NCBI GenBank assembly: GCA_045599485.1
Contig: JAZRWA010000051.1
Coordinates: 1-16,601 of the forward strand
Direction of reading: 5' to 3'
DNA: 16,601 nt
Source of the DNA: Clostridia bacterium
Lineage (GTDB): Bacteria; Bacillota; Clostridia; Christensenellales; Aristaeellaceae
Shown here: positions 6,476 through 14,569 of the stretch, one piece after another
Layout: the number at the start of each line of letters is the position of its first letter
Numbering within the stretch: position 1 is the stretch's first letter
Notes under the pieces: generated by a model
Database searches by the model: none
What the model was told of the DNA's origin: nothing
The model's input: only the letters and a program-made list of their open reading frames with translations
Translations under genes and position numbers: made by a program

Positions 6476-7702
6476 TCACTCCGCCTTGCGCTTGCGGGCC
6501 AGATATTCGTCCAGCTGGGTCTTGATCTTTTCAGGGATCTCCCGGGAGACGGGGCACTTGACCGCGGAGGCCATCGCTTCGGTAAACGCCGCGATGAAGG
6601 CGGTATCCTGCGCGATCCGATCCGCGGAGAGGACATCGATCGTGTCAAAGCGGTTATGGATCACCGCCTGCGAAGGCGTGGCCAGCCGCGCAAAGGAAAG
6701 CGCGGGCACACCCTTATCGGCAAAGGGCGTGGAGTCGGACGAATAGACGCCGCTGCGGGCATTGATGCCAAAGCCGCGGAGGGCGGCAAAGTACTCAATG
6801 AAATGCTGCAGCTTTTCTTCGGCGCTGACACAGGCAATGAAGCGGCCCATGATGGTGCCGATCATGTCCAGGTTGATGTTCAGCGCGATCTTGTCCAGCT
6901 CGGCTTCATGGGCGGCCACATACGCCTTGCTGCCCAGCAGACCGCGTTCTTCGGAGCCGCAGAACACAAAGCGCAGGCCATAGCGCAGCTTGCGGTCCTT
7001 CAGCTGCTCCATCACGCCCAGCAGGCCCAGACAGCCCGTCATGTTGTCGTAGCTGCCCACAGAGAGCGGGGTCGTATCATAGTGCGCGGTCAGCACGATC
7101 CATTCATCCGTTTCACCGGGGATCTCCGCCACCACATCGTGGGATTCACCCTCGTAGGCGTTCTGCTCCACCTCGATGCGGACGTTCCCCGGCTGCATGG
7201 CCACCAGCCGCGCCGCGGTACGCGCATGCACATTGACGCCGGGCAGAATTTCACCGCAGGCCACATGCGGACGCAGCTCCTTTTTGTCAATATCATCATC
7301 CGGCACATTGAAGGCGCCATTATACGTGATATAGCCCACAGCGCCGGCGGCCAGCAGATCCCTGTAGAGGAAATAGGTAATGCCCGTATCCACCAGCACG
7401 ATCTTGCCTTTCACCTTGCTGAGCGACGCGGCATCGGTATTGGGCAGGTACAGCATGGGCGCCTCCACCGTGCTGCTGCCGCACAGGCGATAGCCTTCGC
7501 AGGGCATTTTCTCGCCGTCCGCCGTCAGCTCCGCTTTCTTCATGTCGGACAGCTGCACCTTGAACGGCTCCAGCCAGGCGCGGACGCCCATTTCCTCGCA
7601 GCAGGTTTTCAGATATTGGGCGACCTTCAGCTCTTCTTCCGTACCGGAGGTGTGCACATAGGCGGTATCCTTCAGGATCTGCATGATCTTTTCATTCGTC
7701 AT
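6476..7702 (-). CDS. M28-family metallo-aminopeptidase with PA domain (408 aa)
   Basis: M28 motifs LTAHYDT...YDNMTG, CGSEERGLLGSKAYV, NLDMIG and SDSTPFADKG. Start chosen at MTNEKIMQ after AAAGGAAG. TGA stop. Confidence 0.85.
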   Translation of the reverse strand: MTNEKIMQILKDTAYVHTSGTEEELKVAQYLKTCCEEMGVRAWLEPFKVQLSDMKKAELTADGEKMPCEGYRLCGSSTVEAPMLYLPNTDAASLSKVKGKIVLVDTGITYFLYRDLLAAGAVGYITYNGAFNVPDDDIDKKELRPHVACGEILPGVNVHARTAARLVAMQPGNVRIEVEQNAYEGESHDVVAEIPGETDEWIVLTAHYDTTPLSVGSYDNMTGCLGLLGVMEQLKDRKLRYGLRFVFCGSEERGLLGSKAYVAAHEAELDKIALNINLDMIGTIMGRFIACVSAEEKLQHFIEYFAALRGFGINARSGVYSSDSTPFADKGVPALSFARLATPSQAVIHNRFDTIDVLSADRIAQDTAFIAAFTEAMASAVKCPVSREIPEKIKTQLDEYLARKRKAE

Positions 7703-7757
7703 TTGCTTGCTTCCTTTCTTTATCAAAGCGCGCCGCGCTGTTTTTGTTTACGTTTCC

Positions 7758-8672
7758 TCAGGGCAGCGGGTTGCCTGCCGCCCGATAGAGCTTGTACCAT
7801 TCGGGGCGGGTCAGTTCAACGTCCCCCGCCTTGGCGATGTCCGCGATGCGCCCGGGGTTCATCGTGCCGATGATCGTCTGAATGCCGGCAGGGTGCCGCA
7901 GGATCCACGCCACCGCAAGCGCGGATTCACTGACCCCTTTTTCCTGCGCCATTTCGGTCAGCGCCGCGTTCAGCTCGGCATACTGCTCCACGCCGAAGAA
8001 CACACCCTTGAACATGCCGTGCTGGAACGGGCTCCACGCCTGAATGGTGATATCATGCAGGCGGCAGTAATCCAGCGTGCTTCCGTCCCTGCTGACCGCA
8101 TGGTCGGAATGAATGTTCACATTGACGCCGGCATCCACCATGGGCGTATGCGCAAGGCCAAACTGCAGCTGATCGATGATCAGCCTGCCCGGCATATACC
8201 GATCCAGCAGCGCCATCTGCGCCGCGTTCTGGTTGCTGACGCCAAAGTAACGCACCTTGCCTGCACGGTGCAGCGTTTCAAACGCCTCGGCCACCTCCTG
8301 CGGCTCCATCAGCGCGTCGGGGCGGTGCAGCAGCAGCGCGTCCAGGTGATCGATGCCCAGCCGCTGCAGAATGCCGTCCGCCGCCTCCAGGATGTGCGCT
8401 TTGGAGGCGTCATAGTACCCGCGGCAGATGCCGCACTTGCTTTGGATCGTGATCGTTTCCCGCAGAGCGGGATGCTTCTTCAGTACCCGGCCGAAGATCT
8501 CCTCCGATTTACCGCCGCCGTAAATATCGGCATGGTCAAAAAAAGTGATGCCGTTTTCCACCGCGGTCAGAACGACCTTTTCGGCCTCCTCATCGCTGAG
8601 CGATGCCATGCGCATGCAGCCCAGCGCGATGGGGGACGCGGGCAGTACCTTTCCGAGCATGAACTCCTTCAC
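7758..8672 (-). CDS. Aldo/keto reductase family oxidoreductase (304 aa)
   Basis: GITFFDHADIYGGGKSEEIFG, LLLHRPD and RYFGVSN are AKR signatures. GTG start sits 7 nt after GGGAGGA. TGA stop. Confidence 0.9.
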   Translation of the reverse strand: MKEFMLGKVLPASPIALGCMRMASLSDEEAEKVVLTAVENGITFFDHADIYGGGKSEEIFGRVLKKHPALRETITIQSKCGICRGYYDASKAHILEAADGILQRLGIDHLDALLLHRPDALMEPQEVAEAFETLHRAGKVRYFGVSNQNAAQMALLDRYMPGRLIIDQLQFGLAHTPMVDAGVNVNIHSDHAVSRDGSTLDYCRLHDITIQAWSPFQHGMFKGVFFGVEQYAELNAALTEMAQEKGVSESALAVAWILRHPAGIQTIIGTMNPGRIADIAKAGDVELTRPEWYKLYRAAGNPLP

Positions 8673-10265: not shown

Positions 10266-11006
10266 TTAAAAGATTCCCGATCCAAGATCGACCCACAAAG
10301 CGGGGCGAACCGCGTCACGGCTGTCGTAGACGCCGCTGTAGCTGCGGGAGCCGTCGTAGTGCACAAGGATCGCATCGCACTGATAGTAGCCGGGCGAGCG
10401 CAGCCACCACCAGCAGGCGGCCTTTCCGTTCACTTTGTAATTGCTGTTTGTATAGGCTCTCTGCCCGACCGCGTATTCCGTCGGCACGCACATGCGCGCG
10501 CGGTCATCCTTAAAATACGTCCACGCTTCCGCGTAGCTGAGCAGAAAGACCTTGTCCTCAGTGTCGCTGCCGCCCTCGGTGCGGTAGCCGCTGTCCCCCT
10601 GCCGCCTGCTGTTATCCACATTCGTGGTCAAAATGCCCTTCTGCTCGCCGTCCGTGAACGCCGTGCTGAGGAACGTTCCGTTCAGCCATACGCGCAGGCT
10701 GCATGCCTGCCACGTCGTATCCGACCCGTCGCTGCTGTACGGCTGGCAATCCAGCGCGTAACGGCTGATCAGCAGCGCCTTGCCCTCCTGCACATCCAGC
10801 ACAAGCCATTCGATGGGCGTGTGATCCGTTCCGCTGATGGTCTGCGGATAATGACCGAAGGTCACGATGCTCCCCGCTTGGATGAAAGGCTCCGCGGCTG
10901 CGCGCTTCTGCCCCGGCGGAAAGACTCCGGTCAAAAAAAGCACAGCGGCAAGGATGATCACCGCGGCCATTGCGATCAGAAGAACGTTGTTTTTCTTTCC
11001 CTTCAT
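10266..11006 (-). CDS. Membrane-anchored or secreted DUF6273-like protein, single module (246 aa)
   Basis: N-terminal TM segment or signal peptide, then FGHYPQ...PIEWLVLD...KALLISRYALD...LRVWLN...DKVFLLSYAEA...CVPTEYA...WWLRSPG...VRPALWVDL. GGAGGA RBS. TAA stop. Confidence 0.8.
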   Translation of the reverse strand: MKGKKNNVLLIAMAAVIILAAVLFLTGVFPPGQKRAAAEPFIQAGSIVTFGHYPQTISGTDHTPIEWLVLDVQEGKALLISRYALDCQPYSSDGSDTTWQACSLRVWLNGTFLSTAFTDGEQKGILTTNVDNSRRQGDSGYRTEGGSDTEDKVFLLSYAEAWTYFKDDRARMCVPTEYAVGQRAYTNSNYKVNGKAACWWWLRSPGYYQCDAILVHYDGSRSYSGVYDSRDAVRPALWVDLGSGIF

Positions 11007-11033
11007 CAAAAACGTCCTCCATCATTTGCGTAC

Positions 11034-11062
11034 ATTATAGCAAAAACAGGAAAAACGGTCAA
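11034..11062 (-). promoter_or_regulatory. Promoter of the 10266..11006 gene
   Basis: Minus strand reads TTGACC (11057-11062), a 17-nt spacer, then extended -10 TGcTATAAT (-10 at 11034-11039). Confidence 0.65.
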
Positions 11063-11071
11063 ATCAACTTT

Positions 11072-11108
11072 AACAACCATCCACCCGCTTGGCGGATGGA
11101 TGGTTGTT
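11072..11108. terminator. Hairpin downstream of the three-module DUF6273 gene; probable terminator with a weak U-tract
   Basis: 17-bp stem aacaaccatccacccgc / gcggatggatggttgtt with one mismatch and a 3-nt loop. Confidence 0.45.
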
Positions 11109-11210
11109 GATGAGTTTGACCGAATTGTTCAAGAATTTCCATGTGCCTTTATCCGCCGCATCACATTGCTGCAGACTGCAACCGCGAACAGCACCTTCGG
11201 TATTTACGGA

Positions 11211-13328
11211 TCAACGCTTTCCTGTGAGGGCATCCAGATCGACCCACATCACCGGACGAACAGCATTGATGCCGCTTGAGACATCATCGAAGCTGAAAAG
11301 CCCGCCGTCGCTGACCACATATGCAATGTACCAATTGCCCAGGGTCCGAAGCCACCACTGACTCGTTTCCCTGCCTTCGATATCATAACGACTGCTGATC
11401 AGTGCACCCTGTGCCGCGGCGTATTCCGTCGGTACACACATGCGTTCTTCTTCGGCAAAATAAAACCGATCCAGTTCCGCATAGCTGAGCAGAAACACCT
11501 TGTCCTATGTATTTGGGCCCTTGATCGTTCTGCCGCTGATTCCCTGATTTTTGCTGTTGTCCACGACAGTCGTCCGTATGCTCTCCTGCTCATTTTCCGT
11601 AAACGCCTTGATCAAAAACGTTCCGTTCAGCCACTCACGCAATGGGCTCGCCTGCCACGAATCAACATCTTCATTGCTGCTGTATTTTTGACAATCCAGG
11701 CCATATCTGCTGATGATCAGCGCTTTATCATCCTATAGATCCAACACCTGCCATTCGATGGGTGTTTGATCTGTTCCGCCGGCCGTCTGCGGATAATGAC
11801 CAAAGAAAACAGCATCGCGTACTGTCACGCAAGAACCGGTTTCTTCTTTCAGAAGATCGTTCTCAAACGGCTCTTCCGTACCCGCAGTGAATGCAGCCAG
11901 GTCTACCCATAACGCCGGGCGAACAGGGAGCCCTTCCTATTTCACATCGACTGACATAAACCAACCGCTGGTCCTGTCCAATGGATAAACTTCAGATATA
12001 CAATGACTCTTGTTGCCGGGTGAACGCAGTGCCCATGAACACCACCATACGCCATTTTCATCCTCGAAGCTGTCAGGTCTTGCGCCATTTGCCAATGCAA
12101 ATTCAGTAGGTGAAGCAATCATATCACCGCCAATAACATCTTCGACTGCGCTGCATTCACCATATTCCATCGCTTCCTCAAGGCTGAGCAAAAAAACGCT
12201 GTCCCGAGTATCTGCGCCACCGCTGAGGGAAGCATACTCCCTCCCCTTCTGCATTGCGTATGTTACCCATTTGTCATTGCCTTGTGTCGTAACGGTCGCT
12301 GTTGCAATTGCTTTCTTCTCTGCGTTGGTGAAAGCGCTGTCCAGGAAAGTGCTGTTCAGCAATCTGCGCATTTCACTCTTGTCCCAGCCCTGATATTCGT
12401 TCACATCAAACCGATGGGCATCCAGACAATGTAAGCTCAGCAGCAGTGATTTTTCGTTTTCACTGTCGTACTTGAGAACGATCCATTCAATGGGTTCCTT
12501 GCCGTTGTAAGGTTCGTTATCCTGCTCGTAACGCCCGAAGGTCACAATGCTGCCTTCTTTGGTAAAAGGCTCCCGGTCTGCGATCATTTTTTCCGCATTG
12601 TCGTTTAATGTATCGTTTGCGGACTGAAGGGCTTCCATCTCCACCCACATGGCAGGGCGAACGCCTGCTTCATGAAAAAGTGAAATGGAGATGCTGGTGG
12701 GGTCGATGTCCACAAAGGTTGCCTGCAGCAGAGAGTCGCCCGGCGAGCGGAGCCACCAGTCACAGATCCACATACCAATTGCGTCCTTGTTATTCCGGAC
12801 GGTTACAGATTGTTTGATTGCATAATCCGTAGGGATGCATATACGCGCTTCGTCACTGTCAAAATAGCTGCGCGACTCCGCATAACTGAGCAGGAACACT
12901 TTATCCTGTGTATTATCTCCACCATAGATACTGTATTCGGGATGTCCCTGACTGCTATCGTTCACTACCTCTGTGAGCAGAATGTGCTTCTTTTCAGCAC
13001 TTGTGAATGCCTTCTCCAGAAACCTTTCGTTTAACCAGGAACGCAGCGTGCAATACCCCCACGCGGCAGCCGCCTTTTCGCCGTCATAGGGCTGGCAATC
13101 CAGCGCATACCGGCTCAGCAGCAGCGCCTTGCCCTCCTGCACATCCAATACCTGCCATTCGATGGGCGTGTGATCCGTTCCGCTGATGGTCTGCGGGTAA
13201 TGACCGAAGGTAACGTAATCGCCCACCGCGATGCTCTCCCGGGCTTGTGCGTTCCGTGCCGATGCGGCTGTCATGCCGATGATCAGTATCAGCATTGCCG
13301 AAATGATGAACAAAGCGCTCTTTTTCAT
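11211..13328 (-). CDS. Secreted three-module DUF6273-like protein (705 codons) with three in-frame TAG codons (11937-11939, 11733-11735, 11505-11507)
   Basis: ATG 13328 follows GGAGGA. Signal peptide MKKSALFIISAMLILIIGMTAASA. I translated 11937 down to 11211 by hand in the same frame. The third module is complete (FFGHYPQT..PIEWQVLDL*DDKALIISRY..LREWLN..*DKVFLLSYAEL..CVPTEYA..WWLRT..VRPVMWVDL) and ends at TGA. There are no frameshifts. Confidence 0.75.
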
Positions 13329-14402: not shown

Positions 14403-14527
14403 TTTAACCCCCTCCGAGAAAGGGCAGTATAAAATTATAAAAAAGCACCTTTGCTTCGATGATAGGTGATTTTCATCGAAGCAAGGGTGTTGTTATGTGC
14501 AATAAATACTGCTTTTTCTCGGAAGGT

Positions 14528-14569
14528 TTGGAAACCATGCTTTTTGGCATCAAAAAGCGTGGTTTCCAA
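14528..14569. repeat. REP-like palindromic element, copy B
   Basis: ttggaaaccatgcttttt-ggcatc-aaaaagcgtggtttccaa. Same ACCAYGCTTT...AAAGCRTGGT core. The right arm encodes the last codons of the 14550..15413 gene and the loop holds its stop codon. Confidence 0.6.

Follow-up and report, generated by a model that had tools for sequence, protein, structure and literature searches.

In a lineage of uncultured horse-gut Clostridia, which includes the NCBI MAG Horse_feces223, the codon TAG is very probably translated as a sense codon. This assessment is made from DNA sequence and applies to translation itself; the residue inserted and the tRNA and release factor 1 (RF1) mechanism stand apart from it. 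We analyzed a 16,601-nucleotide stretch of DNA from this lineage (the window), in which a first-pass annotation had noted three TAG codons within a DUF6273 gene and proposed that they encode glutamine. The TAG pattern belongs to the organism's lineage and is not peculiar to the DUF6273 gene, and translation of TAG is supported by TAG-only interruptions in unrelated genes, by conservation of TAGs across species, and by purifying selection downstream of them. With TAG as a sense codon throughout the lineage, the three TAGs of the DUF6273 gene would simply be ordinary, rare sense codons. That these codons are translated and that module 3 of the gene is live therefore both hold up. The glutamine assignment does not follow from the original observation, as this involved two columns, paralogues of 45–53% identity, and a Q frequency only slightly above that of E; close orthologues and residue profiles favor Glu. 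All of the lineage sequences are metagenome assemblies, and approximately 45 kb of the lineage was read.

The three-module DUF6273 gene

The gene occupies positions 11211..13328 on the minus strand of the window and encodes a secreted protein with three DUF6273 modules. Read from 13328 to 11211 on the reverse complement it is a single frame of 705 sense codons, if TAG is read through, followed by a TGA stop (11211–11213); as first described, it includes three in-frame TAGs, and there are no in-frame TAA or TGA codons. NCBI calls a product of 463 aa (P0367), such that code-11 annotation shortens the 705-aa protein. Translation begins with a signal-peptide-like segment, MKKSALFIISAMLILIIGMTAASARNAQA (13242..13328, minus strand; read from the translation), and the same leader is present in the relatives L001 and L002. 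It is followed by module 1 (~residues 31–240; 12609..13238, minus strand; a Pfam match with approximate boundaries), module 2 (~residues 251–485; 11874..12578, minus strand), and module 3 (~residues 496–705; 11214..11843, minus strand). The Pfam DUF6273 profile (PF19789) matches the gene with 251.5 bits in three stretches, the best of which covers profile positions 1–171 of 172, and matches the neighboring single-module paralogue (10266..11009, minus strand) in one stretch with 108 bits. This paralogue has no TAG, ends with TAA, and is associated with a promoter-like site at 11034–11062. A strong hairpin followed by a U-rich tract (11052..11123, minus strand) is located ~90–160 nt past the TGA of the three-module gene, and the 91-nt segment at 11040–11130 has a predicted fold of –42 kcal/mol (z –7.1). 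It is not flagged by a simple terminator scan, but it resembles a terminator at which the full-length DUF6273 transcript would end.

The first TAG (codon 464; 11937..11939, minus strand) lies between VDVK and EGLP, and is kept in L001, a 90%-identical orthologue. It precedes a module-ending motif, as had been noted, and this is the conserved C-terminal motif of module 2, LPVRPALWVDL. The ~726 nt past this codon agree with the ~725 nt given earlier and contain all of module 3, but they also contain the end of module 2. Module 3 holds the other two TAGs and, compared with its paralogues, has an omega of ~0.2. The second TAG (codon 532, between LDL and DDK; 11733..11735, minus strand) corresponds to CAG in module 1, in the neighboring gene, and in the L002 copy. 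The third (codon 608, between PNT and DKV; 11505..11507, minus strand) corresponds to CAG in module 1 and to GAG in both the neighboring gene and the L002 copy. At this third site the first-pass strings are exact (module 3, CCA AAT ACA TAG GAC AAG GTG; module 1, AAT ACA CAG GAT AAA GTG TTC CTG), and the neighbor indeed reads DTEDK. Over the 32 nt adjoining this TAG, identity to the neighboring gene is 94%, and at this column that gene has GAG (Glu), not CAG.

TAG-interrupted genes in the window and in related genomes

Two other genes in the window contain in-frame TAGs. A secreted HExxH peptidase-like gene (1985..3547, minus strand) has two (3191–3193 and 2486–2488) and ends with TAA, and a secreted Peptidase_C39_2-like gene (14550..15413, minus strand) has one (15012–15014) and ends with TGA. 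Across these three genes the window thus has six in-frame TAGs; TAA and TGA do not interrupt any frame and serve as the terminators in all 13 cases, using the ORFs chosen in this analysis, which differ from the genes called by NCBI under code 11. In the window the domains run on past the TAGs. The G+C content is 45–64% (~56% over most of the window) and the gene content is ordinary, with the TAG-bearing genes interspersed among MATE, AKR, M28, M14, GT2, and RluA genes. A phage or prophage location was rejected on this chromosomal gene content together with the phage comparison, in which no more than 2% of the query is covered by any match among 50,697 phage records. Diversity-generating retroelement (DGR) activity, deaminase-type hypermutation, and phage origin were likewise rejected as sources of the TAGs, on the TAG-only pattern, the presence of G-to-T beside C-to-T origins, and gene content.

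TAG-interrupted genes also occur on nine contigs of related organisms, all assembled independently and from other samples. TAG is the sole in-frame stop type in at least seven unrelated genes and at least six related assemblies, and the gene types include DUF6273, peptidase-like, C39-like, STAND/TPR, and adenylation enzyme genes. The lineage count is ~16 independent in-frame TAG sites; in-frame TAA, in-frame TGA, and frameshifts are all absent. If nonsense codons arose at random, with ~50% expected to be TAG, the probability of a TAG-only pattern is ~5e-5 (14 of 14 sites; two further TAG sites turned up later and are not part of this calculation). No conversion of GAA to TAA was seen either, although GAA is as common as GAG (25 and 27 per 1000 codons). 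In L002 a STAND/TPR gene contains five TAGs, has Pfam TPR matches downstream of them, and ends in an ATGA stop/start overlap, and in its DUF6273 gene a TAG separates the signal peptide from the domain. The L006 adenylation enzyme aligns end to end with solved A-domains, and a TAG precedes its C-terminal half, in which the RTGD and GRRDSQIKHHGYRMELGE stretches are found. Further TAGs are present in L008, L009, and L012, at positions that differ among 95%-identical orthologues. Of the seven gene families with TAGs, five encode secreted proteins or are accessory, and the housekeeping genes seen so far in the lineage contain no TAG. TAG frequency is ~1.4 per 1000 codons in what is an old lineage (dS at least 0.9).

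The distribution of TAGs follows phylogeny, not contamination. In an M28 tree, the window groups in one clade with P0153 (L002) and P0154 (L006), both from loci with in-frame TAGs; P0155 (L007) belongs to the same clade, and the seven genes of its contig neither contain an in-frame TAG nor end with one. A coding-score scan identified six two-sided TAGs in 34 kb of clade sequence versus three in ~250 kb of other loci, and none in the sister contig L010. Relatives of the C39-like gene were searched for with only the post-TAG half of the protein. A scan of a genome collection with the 705-aa DUF6273 protein gave no relative among the matches listed, and the same scan with M28 gave a 1,966-bp contig of Horse_feces223 and a distant Faecousia locus among the matches listed. 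Exact look-up of three window proteins gave no match. A metagenome scan with the aldo-keto reductase recovered loci of at most 76% identity, none with convincing in-frame TAGs; long read-through ORFs in G+C-rich loci of this set were discarded as antisense artefacts.

Selection downstream of TAG codons

Diverged relatives have TAGs in common, and strong purifying selection acts on the sequence that follows them. In L001 (90% aa identity), in which the first DUF6273 TAG is kept, the next 13 codons have seven synonymous and no non-synonymous changes (P ~1e-4 under neutrality, by arithmetic from the site counts). A TAG common to L005 and L011 is followed by 215 codons with an omega of 0.14 at a dS of 0.86, and the window and L011 share another TAG.

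Terminators, tRNAs, and release factor

TAG terminates none of ~24 genes in the clade contigs. It is also absent as a terminator from ~28 genes in the outgroup loci L004 and L010, which look like users of the standard code, and missing TAG terminators are therefore not a discriminator; TAG is used as a stop in the more distant locus L017. ARAGORN did not find a tRNA(CUA) in the window or in L001–L004, and its only matches were a tRNA-Leu(UAA) in the window and a tRNA-Arg(CCU) in the outgroup L004. The window tRNA-Leu(UAA) is the sole tRNA gene in the ~45 kb of lineage sequence.

In the mechanism that we favor, TAG would not be an efficient terminator in this organism and its relatives but would be translated as an amino acid, such that the DUF6273 gene would yield a full three-module secreted protein ending at the TGA. 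A tRNA with a CUA anticodon presumably decodes TAG, and RF1 may be lost or weakened alongside it. The rarity of TAG in an old lineage, and its occurrence mostly in secreted and accessory genes, suggests that decoding is poor and is tolerated mainly where selection on expression is weak.

The residue encoded by TAG

Eight of the nine informative TAG sites have only GAR or CAG as their counterpart, and Glu and Gln codons in these positions suggest that the residue is a standard amino acid. AAG, TAY, TGG, TTG, and TCG never appear as counterparts, although AAG and TAY match GAG in frequency. Among close orthologues (dS no greater than 0.22), TAG is opposite GAG or GAA at three sites (C39-213, C39-254, and L002-DUF30), a fourth site faces both Q and E, and a fifth faces AAT; no site in this set has CAG as its sole counterpart. 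GAG or GAA is also opposite TAG at peptidase-377 and at the third DUF6273 TAG. A profile-based test with five to six columns favors Glu over Gln by 5.6–7.9 natural-log units, with the TAG columns appearing intermediate between those of true E and true Q codons. The spectrum at 4-fold sites (21 C-T versus 16 G-T changes) gives a rough likelihood ratio from recent changes of ~25–50 in favor of Glu. On these ~9 sites the inserted residue is about equally likely to be Glu as something other than Glu; Gln is a lesser possibility, and any other residue is somewhat less probable still.

Alternative explanations

It is doubtful, although it deserves serious consideration, that TAG has been reassigned specifically to glutamine, in a bacterial counterpart of phage code 15 in which the tRNA-Gln anticodon has changed from CUG to CUA. 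An alignment of 345 DUF6273 domains from 120 homologues has Q as the commonest residue in both module 3 TAG columns (30% and 23%), as would be expected from the first-pass description of these as Gln or Gln/Glu columns, but E is close behind (20% and 17%), and the module 2 position is in a variable loop (G/N/V/Y). CAG is the counterpart at the second DUF6273 TAG, at peptidase site 142, and, within the window, at C39 site 105, and CAG is converted to TAG by one transition. The known cases of UAG suppression associated with bacteria, whether natural or from the laboratory, also mostly insert Gln. Against this reading are the five sites with GAG or GAA opposite TAG and the profile test; moreover, synonymous exchange of CAG and TAG should dominate the recent changes, and it does not. 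Pyrrolysine inserted genome-wide through pylTSBCD, as in archaeal code 34, is a good deal less plausible, and we consider it unlikely. TAG is rare, scattered, and without conserved sequence context, as in archaea with that code, and gut Firmicutes can inhabit methylamine-rich habitats. However, the 8 of 9 Glu/Gln counterparts would have a probability of only ~0.01–0.05 (a rough value) if the residue were unrelated to E or Q, and no Pyl gene was seen in the small part of the genome that is visible, which is almost none of it.

Two further explanations dispense with a dedicated reassignment. TAG could be a weak or ambiguous terminator, for example through RF1 loss or impairment, with partial read-through by near-cognate tRNAs, or read-through could be regulated for conditional expression of secreted genes. 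The TAG frequency, which is far below the level of a neutral synonym of GAG or CAG over a dS of at least 0.9, the secreted or accessory nature of most TAG-bearing families, and the tRNA(CUA) so far not found in ~45 kb are all in keeping with this. Nonetheless it has a low probability, as the base following TAG varies (~7 G, 5 A, 3 T, 1 C) with no shared downstream structure, and partial read-through would leave very little full-length product from the DUF6273 gene or the STAND gene of L002, which have three to five TAGs, yet both are under purifying selection. That the genes are pseudogenes generated by nonsense mutation, or that the TAGs are assembly or sequencing errors, is highly improbable. 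All of the TAG-bearing genes are split or shortened by code-11 gene callers, and they are accessory genes, but the interruptions are never TAA, TGA, or frameshifts, identical TAGs are present in independent assemblies from different samples, selection acts on the codons downstream in both comparisons above, and essential catalytic motifs lie past a TAG in L006. Translation of TAG as a sense codon across the lineage is thus the explanation that we prefer.

Implications and relationship to known genetic codes

If TAG is indeed a sense codon here, the list of bacterial genetic codes would grow by one, through a free-living, G+C-balanced gut bacterium. As a natural equivalent of E. coli strains engineered to lack RF1, the lineage would also let the spread of a code change be studied while TAG is still rare and mostly confined to weakly constrained genes, and it would be a source of a naturally occurring tRNA(CUA) with its synthetase for use in genetic-code engineering. 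There would be a bearing on code conflict between phages and their hosts, as TAG-recoded phages are common in animal guts. Systematic mis-annotation is exposed as well, in that every TAG-bearing gene of these MAGs is now split or truncated, the 705-aa protein being represented as 463 aa.

A close parallel is code 15 of gut phages (crAss-like, Lak, and others), in which TAG is read as Gln by phage suppressor tRNAs. The codon, the Q/E-type positions, the gut metagenome setting, and the concentration of TAG in a subset of genes are all alike. The TAGs described here, however, are in chromosomal bacterial genes among housekeeping genes, in a region without phage similarity, and they follow the descent of a bacterial clade; they may also specify Glu instead of Gln. 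The peritrich ciliate nuclear code, in which UAA and UAG both specify Glu, is to our knowledge the only natural precedent for UAG as glutamate, but it is eukaryotic and reassigns both codons, whereas TAA is still a terminator here. Amber suppression in E. coli, by supE-type tRNA(CUA) or in RF1-deleted recoded strains such as C321.deltaA, is the mechanistic model for UAG as sense, in which a tRNA with a CUA anticodon suffices whether or not RF1 is removed, and near-cognate tRNAs insert Gln, Lys, or Tyr at UAG in E. coli lacking a dedicated tRNA. Those systems are laboratory mutants or engineered strains, in contrast to a natural lineage in which TAGs have accumulated and been conserved over the long term.

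In archaeal genetic code 34 every TAG is read as pyrrolysine (bioRxiv 10.1101/2024.09.30.615893). As in our lineage, TAG is a rare sense codon in many unrelated proteins, two stops remain, and code-11 annotation truncates genes, but code 34 belongs to another domain of life and depends on pylTSBCD, whereas the TAG counterparts here are Glu and Gln codons. Code 4 (TGA to Trp, in Mycoplasmatales and others) and code 25 (TGA to Gly, in Gracilibacteria/Absconditabacteria) are lineage-wide bacterial stop-to-sense changes that follow phylogeny, as does the pattern described here. They involve TGA and RF2 instead of TAG and RF1, and occur in AT-rich or genome-reduced lineages, unlike the window with its 45–64% G+C and ordinary gene content. 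According to published work all known bacterial stop reassignments involve TGA, and TAG-to-amino-acid changes are reported solely for phages, some eukaryotes, and archaea (as pyrrolysine). No reassignment of TAG in bacteria appears among the results of genome-scale code screens up to 2026, and we found no earlier report of TAG translation in any bacterium. The lineage would probably have the first natural bacterial code with UAG as sense, and possibly the first prokaryotic change of UAG to glutamate, in G+C-balanced gut Clostridia with a non-reduced gene repertoire, where TAG is rare and concentrated in secreted or accessory genes and where the change may be intermediate or leaky.

In-frame TAG codons in a three-module DUF6273 gene

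The gene at 11211-13328 (minus strand) is read by reverse-complement translation as a single open frame of 705 codons, free of in-frame TAA or TGA and ending in TGA, with TAG codons at 11937-11939 (TAG#1), 11733-11735 (TAG#2), and 11505-11507 (TAG#3; plus-strand coordinates). The observation of the first-pass annotation is confirmed, and the strings it quoted are correct. Pfam identifies three DUF6273 stretches (251 bits), and matches a single-module paralogue next door at 10266-11009. TAG#1 lies in a variable loop of module 2, immediately ahead of the conserved domain-closing LPVRPALWVDL motif. Beyond the TGA there is a very stable predicted hairpin with a U-rich tail (-42 kcal/mol, z -7.1), as expected if the transcript continues through module 3.

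The three-module gene (11000-13000) is 49-50% G+C, compared with about 56-57% for flanking genes. A 130-nt stretch of module 1 (13080-13209) matches the neighbouring gene (10731-10860; see also 11676-11805) at 89% identity, whereas the modules overall share only ~54% identity in protein, which suggests gene conversion among the paralogues. A 32-nt stretch next to TAG#3 is also 94% identical to the neighbouring gene. The DUF6273 locus is fast-changing, and its architecture differs among relatives: contig L001 has two modules, and L002 has a single chimeric module, adjoined by a STAND/TPR gene and without the MATE gene.

Other TAG-bearing genes in the window and in relatives

Two other genes, both predicted to be secreted, are interrupted by TAG only: an HExxH peptidase-like gene (1985-3547; TAGs at 3191-3193 and 2486-2488) and a Peptidase_C39_2-like gene (14550-15413; TAG at 15012-15014). 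The NCBI code-11 calls truncate or split the TAG-bearing genes, giving for example a 463-aa DUF6273 product and C39 halves of 133 and 152 aa. The peptidase-like protein has no Pfam family match and lacks the C-terminal SH3 domain (PF08239) of its homologues P0122-P0130 in other Clostridia, with which it appears from sequence to form an uncharacterised secreted metallopeptidase family.

Each of the window's 13 true terminators is either TGA or TAA, and its remaining genes are ordinary chromosomal ones (two MATE transporters, an aldo-keto reductase, M28 and M14 peptidases, a GT2 glycosyltransferase, and a pseudouridine synthase); the phage records compared have no meaningful similarity to the region. 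Long ORFs at 529-1944 (minus), 6656-7873 and 14466-15374 (both plus) are antisense to the MATE, M28, and C39-like genes. They encode products enriched in the residues G, D, H, Q, and R, and were rejected as artefacts of G+C-rich sequence. A lower-G+C island at 4300-6450 (45-48%, against about 56-60% in its flanks) adjoins tRNA-Leu(UAA) (4422-4506) and carries overlapping genes for a Gp49/HigB-like toxin (5122-5502, minus) and an HTH_3 antitoxin (4836-5165, minus), as well as several small ORFs without family matches; it is possibly a small element integrated at the tRNA gene.

Orthologues were found on short contigs from other samples, and the MAG 'Clostridia bacterium Horse_feces223' (M28 92% identical to the window) belongs to the same lineage. 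TAG#1 is also present in the DUF6273 gene of L001 (90% aa identity), which terminates further on with TAA. On L002 (M28 92% identical) there is a STAND-like gene with a P-loop (GIGGAGKST) and TPRs (1064-3385) that contains five in-frame TAGs, has Pfam TPR matches downstream of TAGs, and ends in a TGA overlapping the start of the next DUF6273 gene (ATGA); that gene in turn has a TAG between signal peptide and domain where the window has GAG. The STAND/TPR gene is absent from the equivalent position in the window. L006, more distant (M28 70% identical), encodes an adenylation enzyme that can be aligned over its full length with A-domains of known structure, with the RTGD and GRRDSQIKHHGYRMELGE stretches downstream of a TAG. 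Three C39-like orthologues (L008, L009, L012; about 95% identical) have TAGs at two further positions, and the peptidase orthologues of L005 and L011 have in common a TAG that corresponds to AAT in the window; L011 also has the first of the window's two peptidase TAGs.

Evidence for translation of TAG

Random nonsense mutation would be expected, from the codon content of these genes, to give about 50% TAG, yet all in-frame stops are TAG (P about 5e-5 for 14 of 14); GAA is as common as GAG but no GAA to TAA changes are seen, and no frameshifts were found. Sequencing or assembly error is ruled out, as the same TAGs occur in independent assemblies. Selection on the protein persists downstream: omega is 0.14 over 215 codons past the common TAG of L005 and L011 (dS 0.86), 0.10 before, 0.14 between, and 0.16 after the TAGs in the window-L005 peptidase comparison, and 0.06-0.24 for C39 pairs. 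In the 13 codons past TAG#1, L001 and the window differ by seven synonymous and no non-synonymous changes, and module 3, having no orthologue for comparison, gives an omega of ~0.2 against paralogues. A codon-usage scan of 34 kb from the clade found six TAGs with coding-like sequence on either side, as against three in some 250 kb from other loci. The TAG-only stops, the low omega downstream and in module 3, and the two-sided TAGs together argue that TAG is very probably translated, as the first-pass annotation had proposed for the one gene, and throughout the lineage.

The outgroup loci L004 (a Faecousia sp. MAG, 16.6 kb) and L010 (an ERZ27234658 contig, 21 kb) contain no in-frame TAGs, and TAG is not used as a terminator by any of their genes (roughly 28) either; L017 often uses TAG stops. 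TAG terminators may already be scarce across the wider group, a state that could have made reassignment easier.

Identity of the inserted residue

Aligned with TAG, the closest homologues available have GAG or GAA at C39-213, C39-254, L002-DUF30, peptidase-377, and TAG#3 (in the neighbouring gene), CAG at peptidase-142 and TAG#2, both CAG and GAG at C39-105, and AAT at peptidase-67. AAG, TAY, TGG, TTG, and TCG are absent at these sites although equally common as codons, which speaks for a residue resembling Glu or Gln and against Pyl, Lys, Tyr, Trp, Leu, and Ser.

Glutamine, the residue originally proposed, is the commonest in both module-3 columns among 345 DUF6273 domains extracted from 120 homologues (30% and 23%, followed by Glu at 20% and 17%, then D/K). 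If TAG were glutamine, synonymous CAG-TAG transitions should dominate recent changes; instead, among the recent changes (dS up to 0.22), three sites have Glu as the counterpart, one has Q/E, one has Asn, and none has CAG alone, and C-T changes are only slightly commoner than G-T at 4-fold sites (21 versus 16). Together these give a rough likelihood ratio of about 25-50 favouring Glu, and a Codetta-style calculation on 5-6 family columns favours E over Q by log-odds of 5.6-7.9 natural-log units, although in this small sample the TAG columns are intermediate between true-E and true-Q codons. The glutamine assignment is therefore unsecured and may be wrong: we give glutamate roughly an even chance, and regard glutamine as less likely, though possible.

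Decoding and comparison with known codes

A tRNA with anticodon CUA would presumably decode TAG, with RF1 lost or weakened; in about 45 kb of lineage sequence the only tRNA gene is the tRNA-Leu(UAA) of the window. Although the clade is long diverged, TAG accounts for 1.4 of every 1000 codons (GAG for 27) and so far occurs mostly in secreted or accessory genes, which suggests that it is inefficiently decoded and that selection disfavours it where expression is high. Read-through might instead be conditional, but the base following TAG varies and a common downstream structure is not evident.

According to Shulgina and Eddy (2021), UGA is the codon concerned in every bacterial stop reassignment known. 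The preprint describing archaeal code 34, in which TAG is read as Pyl (2024; bioRxiv 10.1101/2024.09.30.615893), counts three bacterial codes and describes bacterial Pyl as confined to few enzymes, TAG otherwise being a stop. A k-mer screen from 2026, covering about 2.7 million prokaryotic assemblies, has no bacterial TAG reassignment in its list and cautions that stop-codon calls are susceptible to contamination artefacts. A natural bacterial UAG sense codon, if true, would surprise specialists. The nearest analogues are phage code 15, archaeal code 34, bacterial codes 4 and 25, and amber suppression in RF1-free E. coli strains, from each of which the reading of TAG in this lineage would differ in host, codon, or residue.
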